A stretch of 64,000 nucleotides of DNA from Parcubacteria group bacterium (GTDB lineage: Bacteria > Patescibacteriota > Minisyncoccia > Phycocordibacterales > CALRHW01). The notes beneath the pieces were generated by a model. That model was not told where the DNA came from, did not search any database, and saw only the letters and a list, made by a program, of their open reading frames with translations. Below are positions 5,384 to 56,549 of this stretch, piece by piece (the first letter of the stretch is position 1; each line of letters opens with the position of its first letter). The DNA is taken from positions 2,718-66,717 of the forward strand of contig CALRHW010000001.1 in assembly GCA_943359555.1 (NCBI GenBank). The letters run 5' to 3'. Both the position numbers and the translations under genes were made by a program.

Positions 5384-6637
5384 TTATATTTTTGGAATTA
5401 TTTTTTGATTTGTGATTGGTGTCGTAGTAGAAATTATTTTTTCAGCTTCAACCGCGTTAAATAATCCATTTTTGTAAAGTGTAAACGCTACTCCATATTC
5501 TTTTACTTGAAACTGTGTATCTCCAGAATCAACAAATTTTACCGCTTCATCAAGAGTACTTGAAGCAATGGCAATAGAAGTTGTGGAAACTTCTATGTTT
5601 TTATCTATGCTCTGTTTTACTTTGTCAATTTTAGTGACCGCATCTTTTCTTTTGTCCTGAGCTGTAGCTTTTTTCATTTCATTATCGTCAAGTGTTGGAA
5701 TTTTTGCCTCCACTTCTTCACGCACTTGTGCTGTTGTGTTTATGTTTGCTTCAACAGAATCAAGGAGATTGCTCAGTTCTGTCTGACTATCTAATTTATT
5801 GTCCAACACCTTTTCGTTTGCCGTTTTTTCATCTAAGGGCGTAACTGTTTCTTTTACTAACACTACTTCTTCAATAGCAACGTCTGGTTTTATAAAACTA
5901 TTTGTAGAATCATCTGTTACAGAAATAACCGCCACATCTTTTTGCTCTGTGTCACTTTGAACAGATGCGACAGTGGTTTCGTTTTTCGTGCTGGGGCTAG
6001 GTGTCGCAACTATGACCGTCTTCAAACTTGCAGTCTCCGCTTTTTGCGTTCTATCTACTTTTGCAAGAGAAGCACTGTGTTCTTTTAAAGACTCTTCTAG
6101 ATTTTTACTTACATCTATCGCCATTTTTAAATCATTATTTGCTTCTATTCTAGCGATTTGCTGTTGAACACTTTTTACATGTTTATTAAAATTTTCTTGA
6201 ATTATGTTTTTTGACGTGGTATCAAGCTCGCCCCTTACTGCAAGTTTTTTGGCTTCGTCTAGTCGCTCACCCGCACGTGCAGTATCAAAATATGCTTTTG
6301 ACTGCGCACTAAAAACAAACCAAAAACGCATGTCTTCCGTAGCGAGTTTTATAGAATAAAGAGCATTGTTTGGAAGAGCCGTCTGTGCGAGCAAAGTCGT
6401 TCCTCCGCCGAAAGCGATAACGACAACAAGAGCAAAAGCCACCGCGCGTTGCGAATGAATAAAATATGGAGAAAAAATGGAGAGAAATCTTTGCTGTTGG
6501 GATTTTTGTGGGTGAGATTTTTGCACAGGATTTTCTTTCACATAAAAATCCACATTTTTCCAAATGTTTTGTTTTTCTTCGGTTGAAAGAAGGATTCCTT
6601 TTGCGGATTTTATTATTTTTTTAAATTCGTTATTCAT
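5384..6637 (-). CDS. single-pass membrane protein, putative anti-sigma factor (DUF5667-like by context)
   Basis: Located 17 nt downstream of the ECF sigma gene. It has a cytoplasmic N-terminal ~60 aa, one TM (AVAFALVVVIAFGGGTTLL) and a long coiled-coil/Thr-Ser-rich extracytoplasmic part. Confidence 0.45.
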   Translation of the reverse strand: MNNEFKKIIKSAKGILLSTEEKQNIWKNVDFYVKENPVQKSHPQKSQQQRFLSIFSPYFIHSQRAVAFALVVVIAFGGGTTLLAQTALPNNALYSIKLATEDMRFWFVFSAQSKAYFDTARAGERLDEAKKLAVRGELDTTSKNIIQENFNKHVKSVQQQIARIEANNDLKMAIDVSKNLEESLKEHSASLAKVDRTQKAETASLKTVIVATPSPSTKNETTVASVQSDTEQKDVAVISVTDDSTNSFIKPDVAIEEVVLVKETVTPLDEKTANEKVLDNKLDSQTELSNLLDSVEANINTTAQVREEVEAKIPTLDDNEMKKATAQDKRKDAVTKIDKVKQSIDKNIEVSTTSIAIASSTLDEAVKFVDSGDTQFQVKEYGVAFTLYKNGLFNAVEAEKIISTTTPITNQKIIPKI

Positions 6638-8231: not shown

Positions 8232-8909
8232 TTAGATTGTAGCGCTTGGTGCCTCGCGTTGCTTCTTGCGAGCATACATTAGAGTACTAATAATAATGAC
8301 AGGTGCCAGAAAACCAAAAATTGAACTTGTGATCATGGCCCCCGTAATCATGGCACCGTTGGCTATCACGCAACAAGTCACCACGCCCGAACCACCACCC
8401 AAGGCCTTTATCTTTTGCCACCTATTAGCTATGCCGATAGCTTTAAAGATAATGAATCCTCCTACGATGAGACCATTCACCACCAAGTCATACCACAAAG
8501 TAAAGTGCATGAGTTGCATTTCTCGCTCTTTTGTCTGGATGAACCAAATAAAGAGAGCGAGAACCATCATCAATACGACTCGAAACACCGTCTTTCGCGT
8601 TCTCTCGGATAGAGAGCTGAGCGGGAACTTGAGCATGTAAGCAGAACCGATGAATACCGCAAGACCTGCGATATTGCTATAGACCATGTTCATCGTGTGC
8701 ATCTCGAGCCCCATGAAAAACATGCTGATTGCTTGATATATTAAAAACGCAAAAAGCGCGCCGATAAGCTCATTCTTTTCTTGACGCATAGGCTTCCACA
8801 CATACGCCGCGCACAATAGATAAAAAACTCCAGCTGCCATCATCAAAAAAATTTCAAACATCATACCAAACACCATCGGTCCACTAGACTCCATCATCAT
8901 ATGTTCCAT
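8232..8909 (-). CDS. polytopic membrane protein (~6 TM), Met-rich, unknown function
   Basis: Hydrophobic segments throughout and an N-terminus MEHMMMESSGPMVFGMMFEIFLMM. It lies 5 nt upstream of the histidine kinase in the same orientation. Confidence 0.6.
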   Translation of the reverse strand: MEHMMMESSGPMVFGMMFEIFLMMAAGVFYLLCAAYVWKPMRQEKNELIGALFAFLIYQAISMFFMGLEMHTMNMVYSNIAGLAVFIGSAYMLKFPLSSLSERTRKTVFRVVLMMVLALFIWFIQTKEREMQLMHFTLWYDLVVNGLIVGGFIIFKAIGIANRWQKIKALGGGSGVVTCCVIANGAMITGAMITSSIFGFLAPVIIISTLMYARKKQREAPSATI

Positions 8910-11441: not shown

Positions 11442-12425
11442 CTATTTGTCCCTCATCGCAAGCGTCAGCACGTGATCTAAAAATTCATGAAAATCAATTC
11501 CGCCGACTTTTAGTGATTTTGGTATGAGCGACTCAGATGTAAGTCCTGGCAAGGTATTGGTTTCTAAAATATAAATTCCGTCTGGAGCGACAATAAAATC
11601 ACTCCGTGAATAATGTTTTAATCCGAGAGCTTTGTGTGCGCGAACAGAAAAATCTTGAAGTAACGCTGTTTCTTCTGGCGTAAAATTGCCCGGACATATT
11701 TCCTGTGATTTTCCGCTGTATTTTGCATCGTAATCAAAAAATTTATTTTCTTGTGGTTTTATAATCTCAATCGGCGAAAGCGTATACACTTCACCGCGAG
11801 TCTTTGCACTATCCACTACGCCACAAGTAGCTTCCCTTCCCGCGATAAATTCTTCTACTATTACAGAGTCGGCTAGCTCAAAAGCTTTGTCTACACCTTT
11901 TGTAAAATTATCCCAGTTATCTACGATAGAAACTCCGAGTGATGAACCACCAGTATTTGGTTTTACAACGAGCGGTTTTTTTAAATGAGAAAAAACTCCA
12001 AAAAGCCGTGAGTCGGATTTGTCGTCACGACGAATCACTTCGTGCTTTGCGATTTTTAGGCCTCCTTTTTTAAAAGCTTTTTTTGCAAGGTGCTTGTTCA
12101 TTCCGATCGCAGACGCGAGTGCACCAGAGCCAGTGTAAGGCACATTGAACGTGTCCAGTAGCTGTTGCACTTTTCCATCTTCACCAAAATCGCCATGAAG
12201 TGCGTTGAAAATCACGTCTACCTGCGCGAGAATTTTTTCTGGCGAGCGGGCGATGCCGTCAATGTGCCACACTCCCGCTCGGTCAATAAAAATATCTTTC
12301 GGTAAATATTTTTCTGACGATAAACTTTTCAGCACGTTGCTTCCAGTTTTTAGCGACACTTCGTATTCGCCAGAAGGTCCGCCACGCAGGACACCGACTT
12401 TTATTTTTGATTTTTGAGAGGTCAT
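11442..12425 (-). CDS. ddl: D-alanine--D-alanine ligase
   Basis: KVGVLRGGPSGEYEVSL N-terminus, and the ATP-grasp segments HGDFGEDGKVQQLL and PYTGSG. Confidence 0.9.
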   Translation of the reverse strand: MTSQKSKIKVGVLRGGPSGEYEVSLKTGSNVLKSLSSEKYLPKDIFIDRAGVWHIDGIARSPEKILAQVDVIFNALHGDFGEDGKVQQLLDTFNVPYTGSGALASAIGMNKHLAKKAFKKGGLKIAKHEVIRRDDKSDSRLFGVFSHLKKPLVVKPNTGGSSLGVSIVDNWDNFTKGVDKAFELADSVIVEEFIAGREATCGVVDSAKTRGEVYTLSPIEIIKPQENKFFDYDAKYSGKSQEICPGNFTPEETALLQDFSVRAHKALGLKHYSRSDFIVAPDGIYILETNTLPGLTSESLIPKSLKVGGIDFHEFLDHVLTLAMRDK

Positions 12426-12443
12426 GTGGAGTATTATAACAAA

Positions 12444-12550
12444 CTTTATAAAACATTGTTTGAAAAGACTCGCGCAGGCGCGACGGCGCCGAGCGGAGCA
12501 GAAATCGTAGCAACGATTTACGCGTGCTTTTCAGACGATGTTTTATAAAG
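12444..12550. repeat. intergenic element: 24-bp imperfect inverted repeat arms flanking a GC-rich core that carries a 39-nt motif also found at 38521-38559
   Basis: Left arm CTTTATAAAACATTGTTTGAAAAG (12444-12467). Right arm CTTTTCAGACGATGTTTTATAAAG (12527-12550). Motif copy at 12490-12528. Confidence 0.6.
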
Positions 12551-12554
12551 TTTA

Positions 12555-13841
12555 TTAGCGTATCTTCCTTTGTAGTTTTCTATGAAAACCTATCGCGAAA
12601 CGATGAGATTCGCTGTTCCCGAGTAAAATGGCACGAGAATGTTTTTGGATGATCTGCTTGTCGCCAAGTATCTCGCGAGCTTTGTGTTTATCATCTTTTA
12701 CCACCGAAACAACCTCTATTTTTAGGCTTTTTTTGTTTAAAACTGCATTTGCTACATTGATTTGAGCTTTTGCACCGTCTACGACTATAAGGCTCGGCAA
12801 GGGCCATTCTGCGTGTGTAAGTCGGCGTGACAAAATTTCTTTCAGCGCGGCAACATCATTTATTCCCGGGTTTATTTTTATTTTAAACTTTCTATATTGG
12901 CTTTGTGCTACCTCTCCGTCTTCTATCACGGTCATCACTCCCACGACATTTGTTCCAGCTAAGTGTGCGACGTCGTATGCTTCTATGCGGAAACTTTTTG
13001 TATTTTCTGTGACGCTAGAAATTTCTCCACCAAAAGAACTCATCTCATTTTTATCTGCCGTGCCATGTTTTAAAAGTGCAATATCTTGAATATGATTTAA
13101 AGCAAAAATTGTTCTTTTTACTTCCCCCGCTTTTTCAAATTTTTTCTCGTGCGCGAAACCCTTCATTTGTTTTTCAAGGTTTCGCAAAACTGCACGTTTT
13201 TTTCCTTCAAAAAATAAGCGGAGATTTTTTATTGTTTCACCATATTCTTTTTTTGTCACAGCACCTACGCACACTCCAGAACAAAGTCCTATTTGATAAT
13301 TAAAACAAGCGCGCGGAAGTTTCCCTTTTTTCATTTGCACTTCGCTTGGCGTGCATTTTTTGTCACTGTAAGGAAAAATCTTGCGAATAATCCTCATTGC
13401 CTCTTTAAGCTGTGTCCCGTGCGGAAACGGCCCAAACATAAACTTTATTAGATCTTTAGGGAAAATTGATGAGAGACTTCTACCGCGCACGACTACTATT
13501 TTAGGAAAATCTTCTTTCGTAAAAATTACATAATTAAAACTTTTATTATCTTTTTCTTTTGAATTGTAAGGCGGGTTTAATTTTTTGATTAAATTTGCTT
13601 CAAGAATAAGTGCTTCAAGTACAGAGTCCGTCTGTGTAAAATCCACCTTCTCAAACTCTTGCAACATTTTTAAAATAAGCGGACTTCTGGTATGTGCAAT
13701 GTCCGTAGAAAAATAACTCCGCACTCTATCGCGTAGCGAAGTCGCTTTCCCTACATACAAGACACGACCGCGAGGACCTTTAAAAAAATATACTCCCGGC
13801 GTTTCTGGTAATTTTGATAAAAATTTTTGAGGCGTTTTCAT
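12555..13841 (-). CDS. uvrC: excinuclease ABC subunit C, short form lacking C-terminal (HhH)2
   Basis: GIY-YIG N-terminus GVYFFKGPRGRVLYVGKATSLRDRV. Central UvrB-interacting region and an RNase H-like 5'-incision region. Ends IVVDGAKAQ.... Length 428 aa. Confidence 0.8.
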   Translation of the reverse strand: MKTPQKFLSKLPETPGVYFFKGPRGRVLYVGKATSLRDRVRSYFSTDIAHTRSPLILKMLQEFEKVDFTQTDSVLEALILEANLIKKLNPPYNSKEKDNKSFNYVIFTKEDFPKIVVVRGRSLSSIFPKDLIKFMFGPFPHGTQLKEAMRIIRKIFPYSDKKCTPSEVQMKKGKLPRACFNYQIGLCSGVCVGAVTKKEYGETIKNLRLFFEGKKRAVLRNLEKQMKGFAHEKKFEKAGEVKRTIFALNHIQDIALLKHGTADKNEMSSFGGEISSVTENTKSFRIEAYDVAHLAGTNVVGVMTVIEDGEVAQSQYRKFKIKINPGINDVAALKEILSRRLTHAEWPLPSLIVVDGAKAQINVANAVLNKKSLKIEVVSVVKDDKHKAREILGDKQIIQKHSRAILLGNSESHRFAIGFHRKLQRKIR

Positions 13842-16516: not shown

Positions 16517-16574
16517 TGGGTTACGGGTAAACTATAACAGGTGTGAAGGGTTTTTGAAAGAAAACAAAAAAATA

Positions 16575-16714
16575 AGAAATAAGAAATGACCCTTTAAAAA
16601 ACATTCGCAGACCGAAAAGCATGGTTTTGCCTAAGGCAAATTTTCGGTCGAGGACGAAGAAAACCTTTCGCTGGAAAGGTTTTCTGTTTTTTCAAAGGGT
16701 CATTTCTTATTTCT
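16575..16714. other. ~140-nt composite stem-loop between uvrA start and response-regulator stop: 28/29-nt near-perfect inverted repeat arms enclosing nested GC hairpins
   Basis: Arms AGAAATAAGAAATGACCCTTTAAAAAAC (16575-16602) and GTTTTTTCAAAGGGTCATTTCTTATTTCT (16686-16714). Inner hairpins GACCGAAAA...TTTTCGGTC, TTGCC-TAA-GGCAA and GAAAACCTTT-CGCTGG-AAAGGTTTTC. Confidence 0.6.
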
Positions 16715-17492
16715 ATTTCTTAGTCTCCTCTAAAACCGCCGCGATTTCTTTTACAAGATCATCTAGCACAATAGTAGCCTTTACGAGAAAGCGTGCAGCA
16801 CCGAGCTGTTTACCACGATCAAGCTGACTTTGCTGAGAAAAATTGGAAAGAACAATAACTGGCACATTTTTGAGCCGATCAATGATCTTCATTTTTTCAA
16901 ATACATCAAAACCATTTATGCCTGGGAGCAAAATATCAAGAAGCAAAATGTCTGGTGTTTCTTTTTCTAAAAGTTTTAGTACATCTTCGCCTGTGGGTGC
17001 GTAAAAAAGTTTACAGCCCTGTTTTGAAAGTTTACGAGATATGAGGTCGCTTAAAAATTGATCGTCTTCCACCCACATTATTTTTTTGCCGACGAGAGGT
17101 CCGCCCTCCATACCAGATTTTGTGAGTTTTGAAAGATTGGTTTTTATCTTTAGCATTAAATCGTCCAAACTAAGCTGAGCTTTTACGATATAATCTTTTA
17201 CTCCAAGATCTACTGCACGCTTTATTTCTTCTAAATCACCAGAAGGAGAAACCATAATGAGCGGAATCTTTGTGATAGCAGGATTATCCATTTTGGTCTC
17301 CAAAATTTTGTAACCATCGGCTGTGGTTATTTCCATATCTAAAATAATAAGATCTGGTTTATAAAGAGAAATTTGTTCTATTGCAACTGCGCCGTTATTT
17401 ATAACGAGTGTTTGGTGTCCGTCTTTTTTTATCCTTTGATTTAATACATCTCCAAAAAAGATATCTTGCTCTATGATAAGAATTTTAGACAT
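16713..17492 (-). CDS. response regulator with two tandem receiver domains and no output domain
   Basis: REC1 has DLIILDMEI and REC2 has DILLLDILLPGINGFDV. No DNA-binding domain. Confidence 0.8.
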   Translation of the reverse strand: MSKILIIEQDIFFGDVLNQRIKKDGHQTLVINNGAVAIEQISLYKPDLIILDMEITTADGYKILETKMDNPAITKIPLIMVSPSGDLEEIKRAVDLGVKDYIVKAQLSLDDLMLKIKTNLSKLTKSGMEGGPLVGKKIMWVEDDQFLSDLISRKLSKQGCKLFYAPTGEDVLKLLEKETPDILLLDILLPGINGFDVFEKMKIIDRLKNVPVIVLSNFSQQSQLDRGKQLGAARFLVKATIVLDDLVKEIAAVLEETKK

Positions 17493-25577: not shown

Positions 25578-26018
25578 TTATTGTAACAGAAATTTAAGAA
25601 CGCGGAAGTTTGTGGGATCTATTTCTACTTGTAAGTCTGTCTCGGCGTTTTGAAAGGTAGTGCTTGTGTAAAGAGTAATTGTTTCGCTAAAATGTATGAT
25701 GTCTTTTATAAAACACTCACTCTGAGATAAGCTGTTTCCATCATGCATCGTAATTGTTTCATTGCCTTCATAATTTACGTTTTCAGATATTTTTAGGCGG
25801 GCAATTTCCGTGCATGAAAAAGCAAATCTTTCACTTATTGTTTTTCTTTCGTGATCAAGTATTGCTAATCTTGCATAAAACCCAGCTTTACTTTGATCCA
25901 ACAGACTCATCATAAGCGTCATGGAAATAATAACCGAAGAAACGATTGTTATGTATCCTTTTTGCTTTTTTTCGTTGCGACTATTTGTGTTTTTTTGTAG
26001 TAATTTTATTTTAACCAT
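25578..26018 (-). CDS. possible minor pilin/pseudopilin-like protein (degenerate class III signal)
   Basis: Basic leader ...KKQKG followed by YITIVSSVIISMTLMMSLL. It lacks Phe+1 and Glu+5. Its position in the pilin cluster is the main support. Confidence 0.3.
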   Translation of the reverse strand: MVKIKLLQKNTNSRNEKKQKGYITIVSSVIISMTLMMSLLDQSKAGFYARLAILDHERKTISERFAFSCTEIARLKISENVNYEGNETITMHDGNSLSQSECFIKDIIHFSETITLYTSTTFQNAETDLQVEIDPTNFRVLKFLLQ

Positions 26019-26455
26019 ATTATTTTTTTAAACTTCATATTATTAATTAAAAAACTAAAATAAATACTGTGCATAGCATTTTTCTCTATTACCCGTGTAA
26101 ACTCTAGATTTTCTACAACCACATCAATAGTTGTAAGTGCCTGTGGTATTGATGTGTTTTTATCTGTCACAAGCCAAAGACGACTGTTTTTTAAATAAAT
26201 TTCAAAATTTAAAATGTCGTCTTGAGAAAGATCTTGTGTAAGCGGTGCCATTTTTTGTAAGACAAAATTTCCCTCCACTAGTGCATTTACATATTTGAAA
26301 AACCATTTGTTTCCATCTATTAGCTGAAATGTTGAAACCATAACTCCCGTTAGAAGAAGTGATGAAAGCCCGATATAAATAATTACCTCTATTAGGGTGA
26401 AGCCTTGCGCCCGCGCGTACGCGCGGGCGCCCCCTTTCTTTTTTATATTTTTCAT
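26006..26455 (-). CDS. type IV pilin-like protein (prepilin-type N-terminal methylation motif)
   Basis: AQG|FTLIEVIIYIGLSSLLL shows Gly-1, Phe+1 and Glu+5. Confidence 0.75.
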   Translation of the reverse strand: MKNIKKKGGARAYARAQGFTLIEVIIYIGLSSLLLTGVMVSTFQLIDGNKWFFKYVNALVEGNFVLQKMAPLTQDLSQDDILNFEIYLKNSRLWLVTDKNTSIPQALTTIDVVVENLEFTRVIEKNAMHSIYFSFLINNMKFKKIIWLK

Positions 26456-27966
26456 ATATTTTCTTGAAGAGATTTTATTTCATAAATTTTATTATCCAAC
26501 AACACATCCGAAGAACTGACACCATAAATAACTCCATCTTTTATATCCAGTGCCGACAATTTATGTGCAAATATTGCGGTAGAGATTTTTTTAATATTTT
26601 CTGGAGCAGAAGTGTCTAGAACGAAAAAACCTTTTGTAGAATCAGTGGTCGCGAGAAAAGCAATATTACTACTTACTATTATTTCACTAACACTTGATGC
26701 GGTGCCTGTAAGTGCTAAAAAACTCGTACCTAAAAGCGCAGGTGATGATGGCACAAAAACATCAATCATATAAAACTCCGGATTTGTCACCGTTCCCCTT
26801 TTTCGTCCGAGATAAATAGTGTTTCCTAGCAAATAAATACTAGTCGCATCTTTGTCATTTGGTGAGCTTGTGCCCGCATTAAATGAACCCATTTCAAATA
26901 TTGCAAGAGGGTTTTTTACATCCAACACGATGAGCTCCTTGCTGTTGGCGGAAGTTGCGAGATATGCAATATCATCACGGACAGCAATGCTGTTTATATT
27001 GTGAGTAATTTCTAAAAAACCAATTTCAATAGGATTTGCAGGAGATGCGACATCAAAAATATGAAACTCTGGTCCTGCTGTTTCTTTTGTTCCAATATAA
27101 ACTTTTGAATCAAAATATTTAATACTTCTGCCTTGCGGATAAGAGCCTTCTGAATTTACGAGCACCAAGCTTCTCTTTGCGATTAACGCCGGATTTGCTG
27201 TGTCACGCACATCAATCACCACAAACTGACTCGTAGTGGCGTTTATAACAGCAAAAACATAACCGTCCGCAAAATCAAAAGCAAAAATTCCTGCACCAAC
27301 ATCCAGCTCGGATATTTTTAAATTTGGTGTTTTTAAATCAAATATTGCAAGGTCGGAGTGTGTAATAATAGAACCGTCCGCAACATTCACAGTATCAAGA
27401 ATATCAGCTGAAATAAAAACTGTATCATCTACAACATCAGTGTCGGTGACATTTTTAAGTTCGGCAGAAAGTGAACTGTTTTCATAATTTATCCAATCTT
27501 GTGAAAAAAGTTCTTTGCCACTACACGCTTCGCCACTTTTTTTAACAAAAGCTGGATAAGAAAAAACTTGAGAAAAAAATGTGAAGCGTGGTGTGTTTTC
27601 CTGTAACCACTTTTCATTGACTGACATCTTTTTTATACACGGCGTAATATCAAGGACTTTAATTTTCTCATCGTAAAAATCATCTATTTTATTTTCGGCA
27701 TTAATGATCTGATTAAAATTTATTGACGTCTGGGCTTCGTTATCATTTTCCGAAGACATTATGAAAGTTTTTTCAAATACTTCTTCTGCACGCAATATTG
27801 AACCTAAATATAATTCACCATCTAACACCAGCGATTGTGCACCAAAAGAAACACTCGCCGCCGCAGACAGTGCTAAAGTCACAATTGCAAAAGCAATAAG
27901 TATTTCAAGTGTAGAAAATCCACGCAAAAACTTTGCTCTACTTTTTAATGTTTTGAGTAATTTCAT
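26452..27966 (-). CDS. prepilin-type N-terminal domain fused to LVIVD-repeat beta-propeller (candidate pilus-associated adhesin)
   Basis: LRG|FSTLEILIAFAIVTLAL prepilin motif. Repeated motifs FVVIDVRD, LIVLDVKN, FYMIDVFV and FFVLDTSA are typical of LVIVD propeller blades. Confidence 0.65.
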   Translation of the reverse strand: MKLLKTLKSRAKFLRGFSTLEILIAFAIVTLALSAAASVSFGAQSLVLDGELYLGSILRAEEVFEKTFIMSSENDNEAQTSINFNQIINAENKIDDFYDEKIKVLDITPCIKKMSVNEKWLQENTPRFTFFSQVFSYPAFVKKSGEACSGKELFSQDWINYENSSLSAELKNVTDTDVVDDTVFISADILDTVNVADGSIITHSDLAIFDLKTPNLKISELDVGAGIFAFDFADGYVFAVINATTSQFVVIDVRDTANPALIAKRSLVLVNSEGSYPQGRSIKYFDSKVYIGTKETAGPEFHIFDVASPANPIEIGFLEITHNINSIAVRDDIAYLATSANSKELIVLDVKNPLAIFEMGSFNAGTSSPNDKDATSIYLLGNTIYLGRKRGTVTNPEFYMIDVFVPSSPALLGTSFLALTGTASSVSEIIVSSNIAFLATTDSTKGFFVLDTSAPENIKKISTAIFAHKLSALDIKDGVIYGVSSSDVLLDNKIYEIKSLQENI

Positions 27967-29050
27967 ATATCGGAGTAATCACAGAAATAGCGACAAATCC
28001 CACAATCACACCCATTACAACCATCAATATCGGCTCAAGCGAGCTTCCGAGTTTTTTAATAATTTCATCAATCTCCCGCTCAAAATATTCTGAAATGTAA
28101 GTGGATACTTCTACGAGATTACCTGAAGATTCACCCACAGAGAGCATTTGGCTCACCATAAGTGGAAAAAGTACGGGTTTTGTCGCAAGAAAACGTGACA
28201 TAGGCATTCCTTTTGTGACAAACTCTGAAAGTATTAAATATTCTTTTTTATAAACAGCACCCATACAACTAAAAGAAATATTTTGTAATGCGTCTTTAAG
28301 TGGCACATTACTTTTTAATAAAAGTCCGAGTGTTCTAAATGTTTGCGTAACTTCATAATATTGCAACATTGTTCCAAATAGTGGGATTTTTAGACAAAAT
28401 AATTCAAATTGTATTCTAAACTTCTTATATTTTTTAAAACAGAAAATTGTCGCGAAAATCATAATTATAAACATTATCGCTAGATAGATTCCATACTCCA
28501 CAAGCACTTTATGAAATCCTAAAAGAATTCTTGTACTAAGCGGTAGTTTTGCATTTAAGCTAGAAAAAATCGGTGTGATTTTTGGTAGTATATATAGAGT
28601 AATCATTCCAGTTACGCCAATTGTAGCCACTCCAATACAAAGCGGATAAAATAATGCACCAATTATTTTTTGCCAAAGTAACTGTCTTTTTTTAAGTTCA
28701 ATTGAGACATGTTGTAGATTTGCACAAAGTGTCCCAGTCATTTCTCCAGTTTTGATAATTTGCACAGCGAGATTGTTAAATTTTGGGCTAGAGTGCATCA
28801 AACTCGTAGAAAGAAAATTCCCTTTTAAAACATCTGAAATAATATTGCGAAGCATTTTTTTCTCTTTTTCTTTCCGTGATTGAGCGAGAAGCATTTCTAA
28901 ACTTTGAGTGAGTGAAATCTCTGCGCCAACTAAAAAAGAAAGACGTGAAGTAAAATATGCTTGTTCGCGAAGCGAAAGCTGAGTGCCAAAAAAACCAAAT
29001 CCACCTAGCTTACGAAAGATTTTTTTCATATCAAATATTTTTTTAATCAT
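27938..29050 (-). CDS. pilC: type IV pilus/T2SS platform protein (PilC/GspF family)
   Basis: Two GspF repeats with three TM, and an N-terminal cytoplasmic domain LSLREQAYFTSRLSFLVGAEISL. Confidence 0.8.
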   Translation of the reverse strand: MIKKIFDMKKIFRKLGGFGFFGTQLSLREQAYFTSRLSFLVGAEISLTQSLEMLLAQSRKEKEKKMLRNIISDVLKGNFLSTSLMHSSPKFNNLAVQIIKTGEMTGTLCANLQHVSIELKKRQLLWQKIIGALFYPLCIGVATIGVTGMITLYILPKITPIFSSLNAKLPLSTRILLGFHKVLVEYGIYLAIMFIIMIFATIFCFKKYKKFRIQFELFCLKIPLFGTMLQYYEVTQTFRTLGLLLKSNVPLKDALQNISFSCMGAVYKKEYLILSEFVTKGMPMSRFLATKPVLFPLMVSQMLSVGESSGNLVEVSTYISEYFEREIDEIIKKLGSSLEPILMVVMGVIVGFVAISVITPIYEITQNIKK

Positions 29051-30266
29051 GAAGACATCTAAAAATTTCTTCTATGGTAGTCAGACCCATCTCTACTTTC
29101 CGTAAACCATCTACGACAAGTGACACCATTCCATTATTCATCGCGATATTTTTTATTTGCACCGCAGACAGACGAGCCACTATCGCATCACGAATAAGAT
29201 CATCAACAACGAGTATTTCGTTTACCACAACCCTACCGTTATAACCACTATGCGCACAATTTTCGCAACCAATTCCATAAAAAGCATTTTGTAAATCGTG
29301 ACCGTAAAGATTGTGCAGTGTTTCTTTTTCTGCCATAGACATTGGACGCGCCACCTTACAATGCACGCAAATTTTCCTAACCAAACGTTGGGCAATCACA
29401 AGACGTAAAGTAGACGCGACTAAAAACGGCTCTATTCCCATATCAAGAAAACGTGGAATAGCAGTAGCACAATCCACGGTGTGTAAAGTAGAAAGCAACA
29501 AGTGCCCAGTTAAAGCCGTGTTGATTGCAATCTGAGCGGTTTCATTGTCGCGAATTTCTCCCACCATTATAATGTCTGGATCTTGTCGTAAAATAGAACG
29601 TAGCCCATTTGCAAAAGTGAGACCGACACGTGGCTGTGTTTGAATTTGTTTTATCCCAGCGAGAGCGTATTCAATAGGATCTTCAATAGTGATTATTGAA
29701 TTTTCTTTTCGGTTTAATAGTCTGACGAGTGTATATAGAGTCGTCGTTTTCCCCGAACCTGTCGGACCCGTCATTAGTATCATTCCGTTTTGTCTTTTTA
29801 TTTCGCGCAAAATATTTTCTTCATCACTCGCCAAAAAACCTAGACCAGAAAGTGTATTGTCCCCTAAAGTATTTTTGAGTAAACGCAAAACAACACTTTC
29901 TCCATAATGTGTCGACACAAAAGAAATCCGCACATCAAAAGACGTGTTTTCTAAAGAATAACGAAAACGTCCGTCTTGTGGAGTTTTTTGCTCATCGGTG
30001 CGTAGATTTGAAATAATTTTTAAACGCAAGACAACCTTAGAAAAAATGTTATGAGAAAAAGTAGATATGTCACACAACATTCCATCAACACGAAAACGAA
30101 TTCTTATTGACTCTTCGCTTGGGTGTAAATGAATATCTGAAGCACGCAAAAAAAACGCATCTTCTAAAATTGCATTTACAAAATCAATAACAAAAATGTC
30201 TGGAGCACGAGCGAGCTCACTGGTAATTTTTAGCTCGCGTGCAATTTTTAAATTTTTCACAAACAC
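29043..30266 (-). CDS. pilB: type IV pilus assembly ATPase, PilB/GspE family (short form lacking N1 domain)
   Basis: Walker A LMTGPTGSGKTTT, Asp/His boxes, and tetracysteine CVHC...CENC. Confidence 0.8.
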   Translation of the reverse strand: MFVKNLKIARELKITSELARAPDIFVIDFVNAILEDAFFLRASDIHLHPSEESIRIRFRVDGMLCDISTFSHNIFSKVVLRLKIISNLRTDEQKTPQDGRFRYSLENTSFDVRISFVSTHYGESVVLRLLKNTLGDNTLSGLGFLASDEENILREIKRQNGMILMTGPTGSGKTTTLYTLVRLLNRKENSIITIEDPIEYALAGIKQIQTQPRVGLTFANGLRSILRQDPDIIMVGEIRDNETAQIAINTALTGHLLLSTLHTVDCATAIPRFLDMGIEPFLVASTLRLVIAQRLVRKICVHCKVARPMSMAEKETLHNLYGHDLQNAFYGIGCENCAHSGYNGRVVVNEILVVDDLIRDAIVARLSAVQIKNIAMNNGMVSLVVDGLRKVEMGLTTIEEIFRCLHD

Positions 30267-38065: not shown

Positions 38066-38575
38066 GAGGGATAAAGAGCCAAAGGCTCAAACTAATTTGC
38101 AAGTGTCAGTTGCGGGACAACAACACGATGACGAAATCCGGCGCACCAGATATGACCAAAACCCAATTTGTGGGCGGAGACCCTAAGACGGCTGTAGCCG
38201 TCGAAGAAGACAGACGCAACGAAGTATTCGCCTCTAACCTTGTAAAGGAAGAAAGTTGCGTCTCCGTCTGTACGGAGCCACTTTCTCTGGTGTCGCGCAA
38301 ACTCTATGATCTGACTCTGTTCCAAGCACAGGCTATCAAGGTTAGAACGAGCGCCAGTGAAAATCTGATAAAAGTTTCCATCCCTGACCAGTTCATAAAC
38401 CTCGATGTTCGTAGGACCACTTGGCTTGCTTTTGATATCACTTCCATAACTAAGGAAGTGATAGTCGATATAACTAGTGAAGACATCTTTCGCTTCTGCG
38501 ATAGCACTCTTCCCGTCTGTCGAGCGGAGCAGAAATCGTAGCAACGATAGACGCGTGCTCTGAAAACACAACTTA
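38066..38575. other. GC-rich anomalous island; candidate structured ncRNA or horizontally acquired small gene
   Basis: Its base composition is visibly GC-richer than the flanks and it has many GC-stem hairpins. Both strands are open but only from TTG, and there is no SD. The 39-nt motif sits at its right edge. Confidence 0.4.
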
Positions 38576-38591
38576 TTTATTTTTTTGTTGC

Positions 38592-39818
38592 CTAGTAATT
38601 CCTCAAACGATCAATATTCTCATGCTGTCGTATCTTTTCATGCGCCTTTGCTTCAATCTGCCTAATACGCTCACGAGTCACCCCAAACTCTTTTCCTACT
38701 TCTTCAAGAGTATGAGTAATACCGTCTACAAGTCCGTGTCGCATTTCCAATATCCTACGCTCTTTTGGAGGAAGGTCATTTAAAATTTCTTTTACTTGAT
38801 CAGAAATTATTCGTCGTGAAGAATCTTGGTCGGGCGAAAGTATCTTGTCATCAGGAATAAAATCCCCGAGAGTTGATTTACCGTCGTCACCATCGTCGCC
38901 GACAGGACTTTCAAGAGATACAGTACTCTGATCAATCTTCTCAATATTATAAATTTTGTCCACGTCCAAATTCATTTCCATCGCAACTTCTTCTGGTAAA
39001 GGATCTCGTCCTAGGTCTTGAGAAAGTCGGCGCACCACTTGCTTGTATTTTGCAATCGTTTCCACCATGTGCACTGGCACACGAATAGTACGCGACTGAT
39101 CAGCGAGTGCGCGAGTAATAGCTTGACGAATCCACCAAGTGGCATAAGTAGAAAACTTATATCCTTTTGTCCAATCAAATTTATCTACAGCTTTAAATAA
39201 TCCGAGATTTCCTTCCTGAATTAAATCAAGAAGTGTCAAGTCTGGACTTCTTCCAACATATTTTTTGGCAATTGAAACTACAAGGCGTAGGTTGGACCGA
39301 GCGAGCAGATTTTTCGCTTCGTCATCTCCTTTCTCAATTCTCTTTGCGAGTTCTTTTTCTGTCGCACCAGAAATGAGAGGATATTGACCTATTTCTTTTA
39401 AATACATTTGGATAGAATCGTATGGAGAACCCTCACCTTTATTGTAAGTATATTTTTTAACTGCAGGATCATCAGCGGGGTCTTTTGAATCAAGAAGTCC
39501 TCCTCCCTCAAGAATATCTATTCCTGCTACAGAAAGCTGAGAATATAGCTCTTCTAAAAAAAGAATATTATCTTCAATAGTTGGAAATTCCTTTAGAATT
39601 TCATCATAAGTAATGAAACCTCGCTCTTTACCTTTAGCGAGAAGTTGTTTTACGCCATGGTCAGATTTTTGAGATTTTTTTGCTGATACTCTAGATTTGG
39701 GTTTTTTTGCGGTGGCAGATTTTTTGGTTTTTGCTGAAGCCGACTTTTTGCCAGACATAGTTTTTTTCACTTTTTTCACAGCTTGCTTTTTATTTTTTGT
39801 TTTTTTATTTTTTTTCAT
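38592..39818 (-). CDS. rpoD: RNA polymerase primary sigma factor
   Basis: Regions 1.2-4 are present ([16 protein letters not shown]; [14 protein letters not shown]). Lys-rich basic N-terminus. Confidence 0.9.
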
Positions 39819-48562: not shown

Positions 48563-48735
48563 AAACCACCTCTTGTAAAGGTGTCTTTATAATTGGGTTA
48601 CTAATTTATCTATTGTATGTAGGCAAGGTGTGCGAAATACAACTACTAAACTTTGCACCTACGGTCGTAACTCAATCTATGCAATTAGGAATAGTATAGA
48701 TGTGGGGTAGTTTTTTGTCAACAACATCTAGACAG

Positions 48736-48828
48736 AAAAAGAGCCTTTGAACTGTGCACATAAATTTCTGCTGAAATTTTGTTATGCTCGCGCCAAGCGC
48801 TCCGCAACACAGTTCAAAGGCTCTTTTT
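48736..48828. terminator. 21-bp perfect inverted repeat enclosing a 51-nt GC-containing loop between trmD and rpoB; T-runs on both strands
   Basis: AAAAAGAGCCTTTGAACTGTG ... CACAGTTCAAAGGCTCTTTTT, with the inner hairpin GCGCCAAGCGC. Confidence 0.6.
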
Positions 48829-48943
48829 CTTTCTATCTTGCTGTCGTCAGCAAAAAACACCAATTGCCCCCGCCTGCGCGAGTTATTTCTCAATATGTTT
48901 TTATTGGGCCATTTACTTCCTTTTTTATAAACCTATCTTATCA

Positions 48944-49630
48944 TTATTTTTTCCTCCCCTTTCTCCATTCCTCTATTTTTGCGTGATTGCCTGAAAGGAG
49001 AATTTTTGGGACGTGATATTTTTTGTTTTTGAAAGTAAAAACTTCTGGGCGGGTGTAAACGTCTGGGCTTGCAATGCGGGATTCTTCAAGCGACTGAGCA
49101 GAGCCGAGAACGCCTTTTACTTGTCGCGCGATGCAGTCTATCAAAATCATCGCGGGCAATTCCCCACCCGTAAGCACAAATGGTCCGACAGACACATCTT
49201 CCATTTTAAAAATCTTTTTGATGCGCGCATCTATGCCTTCATAGCGACCAGAGACGATGATGATGTTTTTATATTTTTTCGCGGATGATTTTGCGTAATC
49301 ATTTGTGAATTGTTTTCCGCTCGGCGACAAGAAAATGATTTTCGTGGATTTTGTAGGATTTTTTGCGCCCGCGCCATCACTAGCCCTACCCGTAGAGCTT
49401 TTTGAAATTGCTTTCGCTATCGCTTTCACCACAGGTAATGCTTGAATAACCATTCCCGGACCTCCGCCGTATGGTTTTTGATCTATGCGTCGCCATTTGT
49501 CTTCACTAAAGTCGCGCGGGTTGTAAAATTTGATGCGGATTTTTTTGTCTTCAATCGCGCGCTTAATAATAGACTCGCCTAGATACGAGCTGAAAGCGTC
49601 CTCAAATAATGTGATGATGTGAAATGTCAT
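48944..49630 (-). CDS. trmD: tRNA (guanine37-N1)-methyltransferase
   Basis: MTFHIITLFEDAF N-terminus. SPOUT knot motifs GGGPGMV and GRYEGIDARI. Confidence 0.9.
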   Translation of the reverse strand: MTFHIITLFEDAFSSYLGESIIKRAIEDKKIRIKFYNPRDFSEDKWRRIDQKPYGGGPGMVIQALPVVKAIAKAISKSSTGRASDGAGAKNPTKSTKIIFLSPSGKQFTNDYAKSSAKKYKNIIIVSGRYEGIDARIKKIFKMEDVSVGPFVLTGGELPAMILIDCIARQVKGVLGSAQSLEESRIASPDVYTRPEVFTFKNKKYHVPKILLSGNHAKIEEWRKGRKK

Positions 49631-49668: not shown

Positions 49669-49772
49669 AAAAGTAAAAGACCTAAAAAGGGGGTCGCGAG
49701 CACGACGGTGCGAGCGTTTCAGGATTTTTGAAGCTTAAAAAATCCGTACCCTTTTTAAGGTCTTTTACTTTT
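49669..49772. other. 22/24-bp inverted repeat arms enclosing a GC-rich core between the KH-protein gene and trmD
   Basis: AAAAGTAAAAGACCTAAAAAGG ... CCTTTTTAAGGTCTTTTACTTTT. The core GGTCGCGAGCACGACGGTGCGAGCG resembles the core of the 12444-12550 element. Inner hairpin GGATTTTT-GAAGCTT-AAAAATCC. Confidence 0.55.
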
Positions 49773-49784
49773 GTGCAGTATTTA

Positions 49785-50096
49785 TTAAATCTTCAAATCC
49801 TCCATCGCCTCGTCCACTGTCTTTGAAGCTTTTAGTTCACTTCTCATTCCACCTTCTGGCTCGTTGATTTTGAGATTTACTCTAGCGTTGTTTTTCATTC
49901 CCACAACTCGGAGCAAAGTTCGGATCGCCTTTGCTGTATTGCCTTCTCGGCCAATTATTTTTCCCATGTCTGCAGAGTTTACATCAAGACTCATAAGCAC
50001 GCCCATTTCGTCTACTGTTCTTTTAATCTTTACATCGTTTGGATTATCTACCAAAGCTTTGACTACGTATTCTAAAAACTGTGCGTCTTGTTCCAT
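49785..50096 (-). CDS. KH-domain RNA-binding protein (YlqC/UPF0109-like)
   Basis: KH GXXG loop IGREGNTAKAIRTLL. The likely start is MEQDAQ at 50096 (the listed ORF extends to 50204). Confidence 0.7.
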   Translation of the reverse strand: MEQDAQFLEYVVKALVDNPNDVKIKRTVDEMGVLMSLDVNSADMGKIIGREGNTAKAIRTLLRVVGMKNNARVNLKINEPEGGMRSELKASKTVDEAMEDLKI

Positions 50097-50253
50097 ATTT
50101 AAATTTACTAAACTGATCTGATAATAAGAATTACTTTCGTGCAGTGTGCGACTTTTTACTGCTTGTTTAATTTTATAATATTTAAAAACATAGTCAACGC
50201 ACAATAAATGTAAAACAAAAACACCCTTTCGGGCGGTTTTTTGTTTTTTAAAT

Positions 50254-50873: not shown

Positions 50874-52829
50874 ATGCCAAAAAAGGTTTCCGGTCATATC
50901 AAAATTACTTCAAAGGTCATCGGGTATCTGCCAGTAGACGGCGTGCTAGAAGATATTGAAATACAAACAAGCGGATTAAAAACAGCGCTCAACGACGACG
51001 AGGTGGAAGTCGCGCTTCTTCCCATTGTAAAAGGTATTCGCCAGCAAGGTGAGGTAATGAAAATAATAAAACGCGCACGAATGGAGTTTGTGGGAACGAT
51101 AGAAAAAGTGGATGTGGAAAAAGTAGGGGGCGATTTTTTCCTCGTACCAGACGATAAAAAGTTTTATCGCGATATTTTGGTGCCTGCTTCTAGTGCTCTC
51201 AACGCACAAGACGGCGACAAAGCTTTCGTCCACATTACAGAATGGAAAGATATGGAAAGTCGGCCTCGTGGCGAAGTGCTTCGTGTGCTTGGAAAAAAGG
51301 GGGTGCACGATGTGGAAATGCAATCCATCGTTTTAGAAAAAGGTTTTGATACTGACTTTTTGCCTGAAGTAGAGGAAGATGCAAAAAAAGCTGCGACCAC
51401 GGCACGCGAAAATTTTGCGCAAGAAATTGCACGCCGAAAAGATTTTCGTGACACGACTACTTTTACTATTGATCCTGTGGACGCAAAAGATTTTGATGAT
51501 GCTATATCTTTTAAAGAACTCGCGGATGACGACTACGAAATAGGGGTGCATATTGCAGATGTGTCGCATTTCGTAACTGAAGGCACTGTACTTGACAAGG
51601 AAGCGCGCAAACGTGGCTTTTCTGTGTATCTCGTAGACCGCACAATTCCTATGCTTCCAGAAGAGCTTTCAAATGACATGTGTAGTTTAAATCCACACGA
51701 AGATAAGCTGGCTTTTTCAGCGGTTTTTGTAATGAGTAAAGATGGCAAAGTTAAAGAAAAGTGGTTTGGAAAAACTGTCATCAATTCAAACAAAAGATTT
51801 ACTTATGAAAATGCTATGGAGAGTATAAATACTGTGAAAGACGGTGTGAGTGGAACAGGCGAATTTTCAAAAGAGTTAAATATTTTAAATAAAATCGCAA
51901 AAATTTATCAAGAAGAAAGACGGATAAACGGCGCGATAGATTTTGAGACGGATGAAGTACGTTTTCAACTTGACGCTGATGGTGTGCCGATAAGTGTTTA
52001 CAGAAAAGAGCGTCTTGATACTCACAAACTCGTAGAAGAATTTATGCTTCTCGCCAATCGCGAAGTAGCTGAAGTGGTTTTTAAAGTAAATGAAAAAAGT
52101 AAAGACGGCCGAGCGTTTATTTACCGTATTCACCCTGAACCAAACGTAGAAAAAATAGAAAACTTGTCTATATTTTTAAAAGCTCTGGGTTTTGAGCTCA
52201 AGAGCAAAAACGGCAACGTAACTTCAAAAGACATAAATGCGATGTTACAAAAAATAGCTGGCTCGCCCGCAGAATCTTTAATTAAAACTGCAACTATTCG
52301 CTCAATGGCAAAAGCTATTTATTCTACAAAAAATGTTGGGCACTTTGGTTTGGGTTTTGAATTTTACACACATTTCACTTCCCCAATTCGTCGTTATCCA
52401 GATCTTATCGTGCACAGACTTTTGCAACGTCAGCTTGTCGGAGGAAAGGTAGCGCAAGATGAATTCGTAAAATATGAAAAAATTTCTATGGACGCGAGTG
52501 AAAAAGAAATTTCTGCTGCAGAAGCCGAACGTGCATCAATAAAATACAAGCAAGTAGAATATATGAGCAAACGAGTTGGTCAAGAATTTGAGGGCACGAT
52601 TTCTGGAGTTACAGAATGGGGTATTTATGTAGAAGAGGTTACTTCAAAAAGTGAAGGAATGATAAAACTCCGTGATATGAAAGATGATATGTATGAGCTT
52701 GATGAAAAAAATTACGCTATTATCGGCGTACGTACTGGTAAAAAATATTCTCTTGGTGATAAAATAAAATTTAAGGTGATGAGTGCGGATTTAAATAAAA
52801 AAATACTGGATTTTGCACTTGTTCAGTAA
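50874..52829 (+). CDS. rnr: ribonuclease R / RNase II-family 3'-5' exoribonuclease
   Basis: RNB catalytic domain (TIDPVDAKDFDDAIS; GVHIADVSHFV), N-terminal cold-shock-like domain and C-terminal S1 domain. Confidence 0.85.
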   Translation: MPKKVSGHIKITSKVIGYLPVDGVLEDIEIQTSGLKTALNDDEVEVALLPIVKGIRQQGEVMKIIKRARMEFVGTIEKVDVEKVGGDFFLVPDDKKFYRDILVPASSALNAQDGDKAFVHITEWKDMESRPRGEVLRVLGKKGVHDVEMQSIVLEKGFDTDFLPEVEEDAKKAATTARENFAQEIARRKDFRDTTTFTIDPVDAKDFDDAISFKELADDDYEIGVHIADVSHFVTEGTVLDKEARKRGFSVYLVDRTIPMLPEELSNDMCSLNPHEDKLAFSAVFVMSKDGKVKEKWFGKTVINSNKRFTYENAMESINTVKDGVSGTGEFSKELNILNKIAKIYQEERRINGAIDFETDEVRFQLDADGVPISVYRKERLDTHKLVEEFMLLANREVAEVVFKVNEKSKDGRAFIYRIHPEPNVEKIENLSIFLKALGFELKSKNGNVTSKDINAMLQKIAGSPAESLIKTATIRSMAKAIYSTKNVGHFGLGFEFYTHFTSPIRRYPDLIVHRLLQRQLVGGKVAQDEFVKYEKISMDASEKEISAAEAERASIKYKQVEYMSKRVGQEFEGTISGVTEWGIYVEEVTSKSEGMIKLRDMKDDMYELDEKNYAIIGVRTGKKYSLGDKIKFKVMSADLNKKILDFALVQ

Positions 52830-52836
52830 AAAATCT

Positions 52837-52899
52837 TTATAATAGGCTCGGAACGAGTTAGCGAAGCGCTTTAGAGAAGAGCCTATTATAACGATTTTT
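52837..52899 (+). terminator. long-stem terminator after rnr (13-bp AT-rich stem, 29-nt loop with a GC mini-hairpin, then TTTTT)
   Basis: TTATAATAGGCTC ... GAGCCTATTATAA followed by CGATTTTTAGG. Confidence 0.55.
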
Positions 52900-55856: not shown

Positions 55857-56549
55857 TTACCACCCCTTTTTTTCAAGTCCTTTTCTTGCCGCCTCTTGTT
55901 CTGCGTCTTGTTTTGATTCACCTTCGCCAGAAGCTACGAGATTTTTACCGAGATATACGCCCACGGTAAATCTTTTATCATGGTCTGGTCCAGTTTCTTT
56001 TGTTGTTTTATAGGCAGGGGTAGTGCTTTCCCTTTCCTGCGCTTTTTCTTGAAATAAACTTTTTGAATCTATCCAAGTGCCTTTTGAAATAATGTCCCCG
56101 ATAAGTGGCGAAATATTTTTGTAAATGAATTCTTTTACAACCTCATATCCTTGGTCTACATAAATAGCGCCGATTATTGCTTCAAGTGTGTTTGCTAAAA
56201 TATATTGTCGTGCGCGACCAGTATCTTTCATTTCTCCGCGAGATAAAAGTAAAAAGTCATTTACAAAAAGAGACGTCGCCACGCGCGCGCAAGTCGTCGC
56301 GTTTACAAGTGCACTGCGGAAGCTCGTCATCTGACCTTCATTTGATCCAGGGTATTCTTTGTATAAATAATCTGTAATTACAAGCTCCAGCACCGCATCA
56401 CCTAAAAATTCCAAGCGTTCGTTGTGTTCAAGTCCAGAGTCTTTGTTTTCATTTATATATGAACGATGAACAAACGCTTGTTTCAGTAGCGTTTTGTCGC
56501 GGAATTTTAATCCAGCTTTTTCTTCAAATTTTGAGAAGTTTATGTTCAT
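55857..56549 (-). CDS. rnc: ribonuclease III
   Basis: ERLEFLGDAVL signature and a C-terminal dsRBD. Confidence 0.9.
   Translation of the reverse strand: MNINFSKFEEKAGLKFRDKTLLKQAFVHRSYINENKDSGLEHNERLEFLGDAVLELVITDYLYKEYPGSNEGQMTSFRSALVNATTCARVATSLFVNDFLLLSRGEMKDTGRARQYILANTLEAIIGAIYVDQGYEVVKEFIYKNISPLIGDIISKGTWIDSKSLFQEKAQERESTTPAYKTTKETGPDHDKRFTVGVYLGKNLVASGEGESKQDAEQEAARKGLEKKGW

Follow-up and report, generated by a model that had tools for sequence, protein, structure and literature searches.

A hairpin repeat family with a conserved branched core at putative terminator sites in a clade of Patescibacteria

The DNA analysed here, called the window, is a 64-kb stretch (64,000 nucleotides) of a Parcubacteria group bacterium. 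It carries two 39-mers, at positions 12490-12528 and 38521-38559 and both on the plus strand, that are identical except for two neighbouring bases (TT versus AG; 37 of 39 positions matched). An initial reading of the window made from its letters alone (the sequence-only reading) had judged this match to be beyond chance, and we agree, since the chance expectation for such a pair is 0 and none of 100 dinucleotide-preserving shuffles of the window contained one with at most three mismatches. A search of the whole window for long inverted repeats with arms 30-90 nt apart, a covariance model and a comparison of trmD-rpoB spacers placed the two 39-mers among the following features.

12437-12557, plus strand: complete type A element (copy 1), an inverted repeat with a covariance-model match at 12454-12541 (104.7 bits)
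12437-12467, 12468-12526 and 12527-12557, plus strand: 5' arm, 59-nt core and 3' arm of copy 1
12477-12490 and 12502-12519, plus strand: core hairpins P2 (GGCGC-GACG-GCGCC) and P3 of copy 1
12490-12528, plus strand: 39-mer of copy 1, columns 37-75 of the covariance model
38092-38520, minus strand: 5'-truncated hypothetical-protein gene (the 'GC island'), homologous to residues 29-170 of protein P0001
38521-38585, plus strand: half of a type A element (copy 2), 3' of rpoD (38592-39818, minus strand), covariance-model match at 38473-38557
48729-48835, minus strand: diverged member, an inverted repeat with a covariance-model match at 48740-48823 (49.2 bits, E 2e-9)
48871-48905, minus strand: remnant of an older type A element, recognised by comparison of trmD-rpoB spacers
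49669-49772, plus strand: type B element, covariance-model match at 49678-49764 (27.5 bits, E 7e-4)

Copy 1 lies between uvrC (12555-13841, minus strand) and ddl (11442-12425, minus strand), with its motif strand antisense to both. It forms a 121-nt hairpin with a predicted folding energy of -58.8 kcal/mol (z -8.5), and both of its strands fold far below shuffled sequences (z about -8). Within this hairpin the 39-mer begins with the final base of P2, runs through the junction, P3 and the 3' junction, and ends two bases into the arm. The internal hairpin that the sequence-only reading had pointed out in the 39-mer is real and corresponds to helix P3 of the element (AAATCGT-AGCA-ACGATTT). The inverted arms reported around copy 1 are likewise present, but they measure 31 nt rather than 24 and are 90% complementary. 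The suggestion that the 39-mer might be the conserved end of a miniature mobile element came close as to the kind of object; the 39-mer is, however, the 3' two-thirds of a 59-nt central core and not an element end.

Three further traces of the family lie near trmD. The diverged member at 48729-48835 is situated between trmD and the rpoB promoter with its motif sense to the flanking genes, and has 28-bp arms, a 51-nt core (48757-48807) and the P3 sequence AAATTTC-AGCA-GAAATTT. Next to it, the remnant at 48871-48905 consists of a 5' arm and the first 13 core bases (AATAAAAACATATTGAGAAATA-ACTCGCGCAGGCG), is broken inside P2, and is homologous to an intact type A element at the same trmD-rpoB site in locus L051. 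The type B element is found between a KH-domain gene (49785-50204, minus strand) and trmD (48944-49630, minus strand), with 24-bp arms and a 56-nt core at 49693-49748 (TCGCGA-GCAC-GACG-GTGC-GAGCG-TTTCAG-P3-CGTA); the segment 49693-49716 had been noted as a weaker relative of the motif, and its place in a diverged, model-matched member bears this out. Both independent type A truncations in the window (at 38521 and 48871) break inside the 14-nt P2, after model columns 36 and 27, respectively; with n = 2, P2 could be a fragile or cleaved site.

Copy 2 had been described as an intact intergenic motif abutting a GC island. This description does not hold: copy 2 is a half-element left by a 344-bp deletion and fused to a truncated gene, and the 'GC island' is that 5'-truncated minus-strand protein gene. 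Core columns 37-73 (38521-38557) and the 3' arm (38558-38585) are intact, whereas the 5' arm and core columns 15-36 are deleted. The truncated gene belongs to a conserved Patescibacteria family of hypothetical proteins with 14 homologues of 170-242 aa, the best of which is 98% identical; a Pfam domain search of the 38092-38520 protein returned none. Members of this family (P0001-P0014) share an invariant C-terminal RVVVPQL, and an intact copy lies at 6001-6513 of locus L001. The window frame departs from the 98%-identical P0001 exactly at the 39-mer boundary, at TDGKSAIAE. In loci L001-L005, which come from the same population, a complete element with its own 28-bp arms and the same core stands directly after the rpoD stop codon and is followed by a 230-nt spacer and then by the intact 170-aa gene. 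Compared to L001, the window is without 344 bp (L001 positions 5741-6084), with a 2-nt microhomology at the junction, and the deletion took the motif-strand 5' part of the core, the adjoining arm, the spacer and the first 28 codons, as well as the promoter of the truncated gene. Similarity to copy 1 ends at 38521 because this position is the deletion junction rather than the end of an element.

The junction between CTGCTCCGCTCG and ACAGACGGG is common to the window and to L066 and L067, which are independent assemblies, and the rpoD 3' site has the full allele in ten loci, which come from samples and bins that overlap and among which is the sister species L047. Taken together, these two observations show that the deletion is a real and recent population polymorphism, with the full element as the ancestral state. 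The junction of locus L070 (1440-1460) reads CCGCTCGGCAGACGGG instead of CCGCTCGACAGACGGG, either through a later point change or through a second independent deletion shifted by one base. The truncated gene now stands without a promoter 20 nt behind rpoD, and the putative terminator hairpin between them is destroyed. On the plus strand, an ORF at 38110-38541, antisense to the truncated gene, ends in RAEQKS-stop and has a codon score no better than that of the minus-strand ORF. Gene callers annotated this 143-aa ORF in L066 and L067 (2778-3209), but it is likely a spurious call, since homologues exist for the minus strand only. The earlier view that the constraint acts on nucleic acid and not on a peptide is borne out. 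A tie between the element and the P0001-P0014 neighbour family was considered and dropped, as the element at the 3' end of rpoD in L044 has a different neighbour.

The full element is a hairpin of ~100-120 nt in which a 59-nt GC-rich core sits on an A/T-rich stem of 24-31 bp. The core folds as a three-way junction, and the sequence of the stem (P1) differs from locus to locus, its 5' arm being A-rich and its 3' arm T-rich. P2 (GGCGC-GACG-GCGCC) rests on a tandem G.A internal loop, and P3 comprises 7 bp closed by the loop AGCA. The type A core reads AC-UCGC-GCA-(GGCGC GACG GCGCC)-GA-GCGG-A-GC-AG-(7-bp P3, loop AGCA)-AC-GC-GU-G, and the type B core GGGGG-UCGC-GA-(GCRC GACG GYGC)-GA-GCG-UUUCAG-(9-10 bp P3)-CGUA-CCC. 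In a gapless alignment of 19 type A copies, pairing is found in 94.9% of the alignment cells, compared with 34-45% when the partners are slid. Nineteen pairs vary on both sides (13 of 16 in P1, 5 of 7 in P3 and one in P2), and none of 500 shuffles equalled the observed covariation values. In P2, compensatory variants change GGCGC/GCGCC to GGCCC/GGGCC and GCGC/GCGC to GCAC/GTGC. Covariation thus strongly supports the stems. The tandem G.A loop lies between the base helix and the upper part of P2, as 5'-GA/3'-AG in type B and as GCA/GA in type A, and a second conserved GA/GA loop occurs in one arm subfamily (..TTGAGAAAAG / CTTTTCGAGAC..).

Arms are not wholly specific to their loci. The inner 9-19 bp are common to subfamilies and to recent duplicates (L028 and L034; L050 and L051), and within the inner 9-14 bp two subfamilies can be told apart, TTTGAAAAG and TTGAGAAAAG; each locus has outer arms of its own. 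In most type A copies the order is A5-N5-TTTGAAAAG-core-CTTTTCAAA-N5-T5. A picture in which the core alone had been inserted into existing hairpins with wholly locus-specific arms was softened on account of these shared inner arms.

The two strands of the element are not equivalent. When the arms were compared without gaps in a strand-neutral manner, the motif strand had 16 G.T mismatches and only 2 A.C mismatches, the latter being wobbles on the other strand. The motif strand also folds better than its complement in 25 of 27 copies, and the G.A loops would be pyrimidine mismatches on the complementary strand. On these three grounds we conclude that it is one strand of the element that folds, whether as RNA or as single-stranded DNA. 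At sites between tandem genes the motif strand is antisense to the genes in 11 of the 17 cases tallied and sense in 6, indicating that the strand asymmetry cannot simply reflect the folding of mRNA 3' ends. Along a 562-kb contig (JAXLZT), six copies are oriented + - + - - +; a replichore-dependent orientation was rejected, this order not being replichore-like.

The sequence-only reading had proposed a search of related genomes and a covariance model. The search brought ~30 further copies, in Patescibacteria metagenome-assembled genomes (MAGs), and the model (R1) recovers four copies in the window and 35 across the window and related loci, in at least eight MAGs. A degenerate pattern derived from the stretch common to copy 1 and a third copy was also run against one genome per species (185,579 species). 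It gave 37 loci, 26 in Patescibacteria MAGs labelled Paceibacterota, Parcubacteria or 'Saccharibacteria' (seven of them on the JAXLZT contig) and 11 elsewhere. All 26 Patescibacteria matches fold into the same long A/T-rich hairpin, whereas the other 11, in GC-rich genomes, have no hairpin context and were discarded as chance. A scan of JGI metagenomes added four copies, and there was no match among IMG/VR viral contigs, phage records or plasmid records. Rfam models run over the whole window found one tRNA and nothing else at gathering score; for 12380-12620 at E up to 10 they returned Trp_leader_2, GlsR25 and sR32, each far below its gathering score. To our knowledge the core also has no consistent match, by eye, to the cores of hammerhead, twister, pistol, hatchet or HDV ribozymes or to the stretch of 4.5S/SRP RNA that contains GACGCGUG. 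A literature search on repeats, hairpins, terminators and structured RNA in Patescibacteria, CPR and Parcubacteria found no description of the element. We conclude that the repeat family is real, apparently undescribed, and belongs to a clade of Patescibacteria (Paceibacteria/Parcubacteria-type MAGs), and we are highly confident of the family, its structure and the deletion origin of copy 2. In locus L061 an identical core connects the left arm of the L059 element with the right arm and flank of the L058 element, which reflects either recombination among dispersed copies or a chimeric assembly at the repeat. Another contig, L069, has its end within a core.

Every copy is intergenic. The usual distance from a stop codon is -10 to +46 nt, and convergent genes flank at least eight of the copies. 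The outer arms have a marked composition (A 314 versus T 132 in the 5' arm; T 328 versus A 120 in the 3' arm) which, being symmetric, applies to both strands. In type A copies a run of at least four T follows an inner stem of ~13-24 bp; in type B arms clear T-tracts are mostly absent. With their A/T tracts and their position just past the stop codon, type A elements resemble intrinsic terminators, but an AT-rich stem of 24-31 bp with a branched apex of 56-59 nt is unlike the short GC stem (about 5-10 bp) of the latter. The spacer between rpsP and the KH-domain gene allows the two to be compared: the window, L049, L050 and L051/L016 have a plain bidirectional terminator there (for example AAAAAACAAAAAACCGCCC-GAAA-GGGTGTTTTTGTTTT), and in L052 a family member with similar outer A/T tracts replaces it. 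Promoter-like sites of the next gene lie directly beyond the elements, such as TTGACA-17-TATACT for rpoB at 48721-48693. The elements therefore appear, from position and composition, to occupy terminator positions with terminator-like flanks. Beside the L052 element (8640-8830) there is an extra half copy, made of the last 6 core bases and a second 3' arm in the opposite orientation, which suggests the footprint of an inversion or a template switch.

Comparison of orthologous sites separates the core from its arms. At the 3' end of rpoD, L001 and L044 (CAYTVX) are 45% identical at four-fold degenerate sites, which are saturated, and 28% identical in the arms; the core is 90% identical, or 98% without P3, and the changes in P3 are compensatory. 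Sites also turn over. At the KH-trmD site, the window and L049 carry type B and L050 carries a decaying type A copy with several substitutions, although L050 and L049 are 91% identical at four-fold sites. Compared with L051/L016, the whole of this L050 copy is inverted together with its arms, which share 90% identity with the L051/L016 arms. At the trmD-rpoB site, where L051 has its intact element, the window has the remnant next to the diverged copy. In L045 (808-1935, CAYTVX) an extra 375-aa gene lies between trmD and the rpoB promoter, and no element is found there. Within single genomes, the arms of L028 and L034, two loci of one genome, are equal but for one base, and core variants are common to several copies in CAYOUG. 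No target-site duplication is recognisable at L028/L034 or between filled and plain rpsP-KH sites, where the ends of the element cannot be placed exactly. Among the window ORFs no transposase, recombinase or reverse transcriptase domain was found, and the core-pattern matches are all complete short elements with no autonomous parent among them. The centre-outward gradient of conservation, the shared variants, the free orientation and the replacement at the same site fit a repeat that is copied between terminator-like hairpins. The same pattern also fits selection or homogenisation that keeps the core intact, and selection at the level of the host explains the conservation at orthologous sites over saturating divergence no less well than selfish spread does.

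Among known systems, the SPRITE repeat of Streptococcus pneumoniae appears to be the closest described analogue. SPRITE, a terminator-like repeat, has an 18-bp duplex, a U-rich tract and AAAA/TTTT termini; it occurs preferentially between convergent genes and near the 3' ends of coding sequences, has no known transposase or target duplication, and has been proposed to be co-opted as a terminator (PMC3049150). Both families have tens of interspersed copies with an unusually long duplex followed by a T/U-rich tract, A-run and T-run termini, a preference for coding-sequence 3' ends and convergent genes, no identifiable transposase or clear target-site duplication, and a proposed terminator role. 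They differ in that the sequences are unrelated and come from different phyla, and SPRITE is AT-rich throughout. The present element, in contrast, conserves a GC-rich three-way-junction core of 59 nt while the duplex sequence is largely free, and it has at least two core types plus an unrelated second core family of the same design.

Other classes agree in part. Correia elements of Neisseria undergo RNase III cleavage at the inverted repeats and can switch orientation in place (PMC10969869), and an in-place inversion of the whole element is also seen here at one site (L050 versus L051). Like Correia elements and MITEs, the present elements are non-autonomous palindromic intergenic repeats of ~100-200 bp that would form hairpins in transcripts (PMC10969869), and like MITEs they are multicopy, shorter than 300 bp, and present or absent between relatives. 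MITEs, however, are defined by target-site duplications and by terminal inverted repeats that are conserved; in the present family conservation is lowest at the termini, no inverted repeats there are common to all copies, no duplication is seen, and there is no known parent IS. A further parallel is found in mitochondria, whose mobile GC clusters and hairpin elements are also short GC-rich hairpin modules in AT-rich intergenic DNA of small genomes, polymorphic for presence in populations and encoding no enzyme (PMC4478555, PMC2800124), but they are organellar, unrelated in sequence and not placed at the apex of long terminator-like stems.

REP sequences at gene ends stabilise upstream mRNA. 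REPs and REPINs share with the present element the intergenic hairpin form, vertical persistence, one active strand and frequent location at gene ends. A REPIN consists of two conserved REP arms around a variable spacer and is mobilised by a RAYT (PMC3116915, PMC3337134); the element has the reverse layout, a conserved centre with variable arms, and no RAYT (Y1/HUH) gene was found among the window ORFs. Integron attC sites were rejected, since they have R''/R' boxes (RYYYAAC / GTTRRRY) around a variable centre and stand in cassette arrays beside intI, whereas the element has variable ends and a conserved centre; in addition, it lies next to housekeeping genes, and no integrase turned up in the window. 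PATEs derived from IS200/IS605, which come with TnpA and have two similar subterminal hairpins but no inverted termini, were rejected as well: the element has long inverted arms, its P2 and P3 are dissimilar and P3 is free to vary, and the window contains no Y1 transposase. As assignment to MITEs, REPINs, attC sites, PATEs and Rfam families fails, we place the family among small interspersed terminator-like repeats, as a new variant.

A second repeat of the same design is present in the window. The 27-nt centre (GAACGAGTTAGCGAAGCGCTTTAGAGA) of a hairpin at 52829-52899, directly after the RNase R gene, recurs in L043, L044, L015 and L049 between different A-tract and T-tract arms, indicating that these genomes repeatedly combine a conserved cap with a variable terminator-like stem. 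Another hairpin, at 16568-16721 between a response-regulator gene and uvrA, has 34-nt inverted arms and an 86-nt structured centre (about -70 kcal/mol) and, among the sequences compared, is matched only at the orthologous site of the same population (L006-L011). Unrelated to the element, a type IV pilus / type II secretion-like cluster typical of Patescibacteria extends over 25578-30266, with a PilB-like ATPase, a PilC-like platform protein and a prepilin with an N-methylation motif.

The reading that we favour, with a probability of roughly 0.55 for the full statement, is that the family is a SPRITE/MITE-like repeat embedded in terminators, combining an elaborated terminator role with spread. 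The hairpin and its flanking T-tract would act in RNA as a bidirectional intrinsic terminator and a protector of 3' ends, the element replacing the short GC stem-loop of ordinary terminators. Core and inner arms would have spread among terminator sites as a non-autonomous element, either through some transposase or through gene conversion or template switching between palindromic terminators with A/T tracts in common, and the latter processes could copy the core in either orientation. The near-complete conservation of the unpaired junction bases exceeds what a terminator or a stability element needs, and these near-invariant bases suggest recognition by a trans-acting factor. More speculatively, the conserved caps (type A, type B and the unrelated 27-nt core) may represent a new class of structured RNA or ssDNA modules on Patescibacteria terminator hairpins, serving either as a recognition platform for a 3'-end-binding, processing or catalytic activity, or as replicators that spread by orientation-independent gene conversion without a transposase; we regard this extension as rather unlikely.

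Some of the same evidence could be read as the mark of a small RNA or RNP, in which RNase III would cut P1 and release a three-way-junction RNA of ~60-80 nt that acts in trans or is bound by a protein. Between genomes the junction, the loop bases and P2 hardly vary, whereas in the stems only the pairing is kept, the strand-specific wobbles and tandem G.A loops are typical of RNA motifs, duplexes of 24-31 bp suffice for RNase III, whose gene rnc is present in the same genomes (55857-56549 in the window, by synteny), and RNase III cuts Correia elements at the inverted repeats (PMC10969869). We nevertheless consider this unlikely, because the motif strand runs antisense to the two flanking genes at 11 of the 17 tandem sites and has no conserved promoter before it, single copies decay or vanish without obvious replacement, Rfam has no match, and the unrelated core of the same design would call for a second such RNA. 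If the motif strand instead folded as single-stranded DNA during replication, repair or uptake, it might be recognised by an HUH/Y1 transposase (as in REP/RAYT or IS200/IS605), a recombinase or a primase/primosome, and P2 would be the recognition or cleavage hairpin. This would account for a single folding strand whose orientation is independent of transcription, for the P2 breakpoints of both independent truncations in the window (columns 27 and 36) and for the variants common to copies of one genome. Two breakpoints are too few to define a hotspot, however, and palindromes stimulate deletions anyway; no HUH, Y1, recombinase or RT domain was found among the window ORFs, the + - + - - + order along the 562-kb contig is not replichore-like, and the conserved part is the centre, unlike the arms of REPINs. 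A role of this kind is accordingly quite doubtful.

A three-way junction with invariant junction bases also resembles an aptamer, and terminator-embedded aptamers are known, such as the HMP-PP riboswitch (PMC6478431). As a host cis-regulatory RNA, the element would be an attenuator or riboswitch-like aptamer within a terminator that controls the downstream gene; yet at least eight copies lie between convergent genes with nothing downstream to control, the neighbours are functionally unrelated (uvrC, ddl, rpoD, trmD, rpoB, SMC, rpsP) and the orientation is mixed, which makes such control very improbable. Finally, a functionless recent local duplication, or the C-terminal coding end of two genes, can be practically dismissed. 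Both 39-mers do read RAEQKS-stop on the plus strand, and the 143-aa ORF is annotated in L066 and L067, but the frame at copy 1 is in no gene, the real gene at copy 2 is on the other strand, and similarity runs beyond the stop codon. The sequence-only reading had favoured a local duplication should only two copies exist; with four copies and a remnant in the window, about 35 copies in at least eight MAGs and ~30 of these in related genomes, that scenario is excluded.

For practical work, the cores are of consequence since they break metagenome assemblies (L069 ends in one and L061 looks chimeric), seed deletions that remove neighbour genes and provoke spurious ORF calls. The genomes of Patescibacteria are tiny and streamlined, with few known repeats or non-coding RNAs, which makes a 59-nt centre that stays ~98% identical (P3 excluded) across saturated synonymous divergence a strong candidate for a structured nucleic acid with a function. 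Its layout, a conserved centre with free arms, inverts that of classical REP, REPIN and MITE elements and makes the family suitable for testing how short repeats propagate and are maintained when no transposase is evident, and under our preferred reading of a terminator-embedded repeat the family could mark how Patescibacteria end and protect their transcripts.
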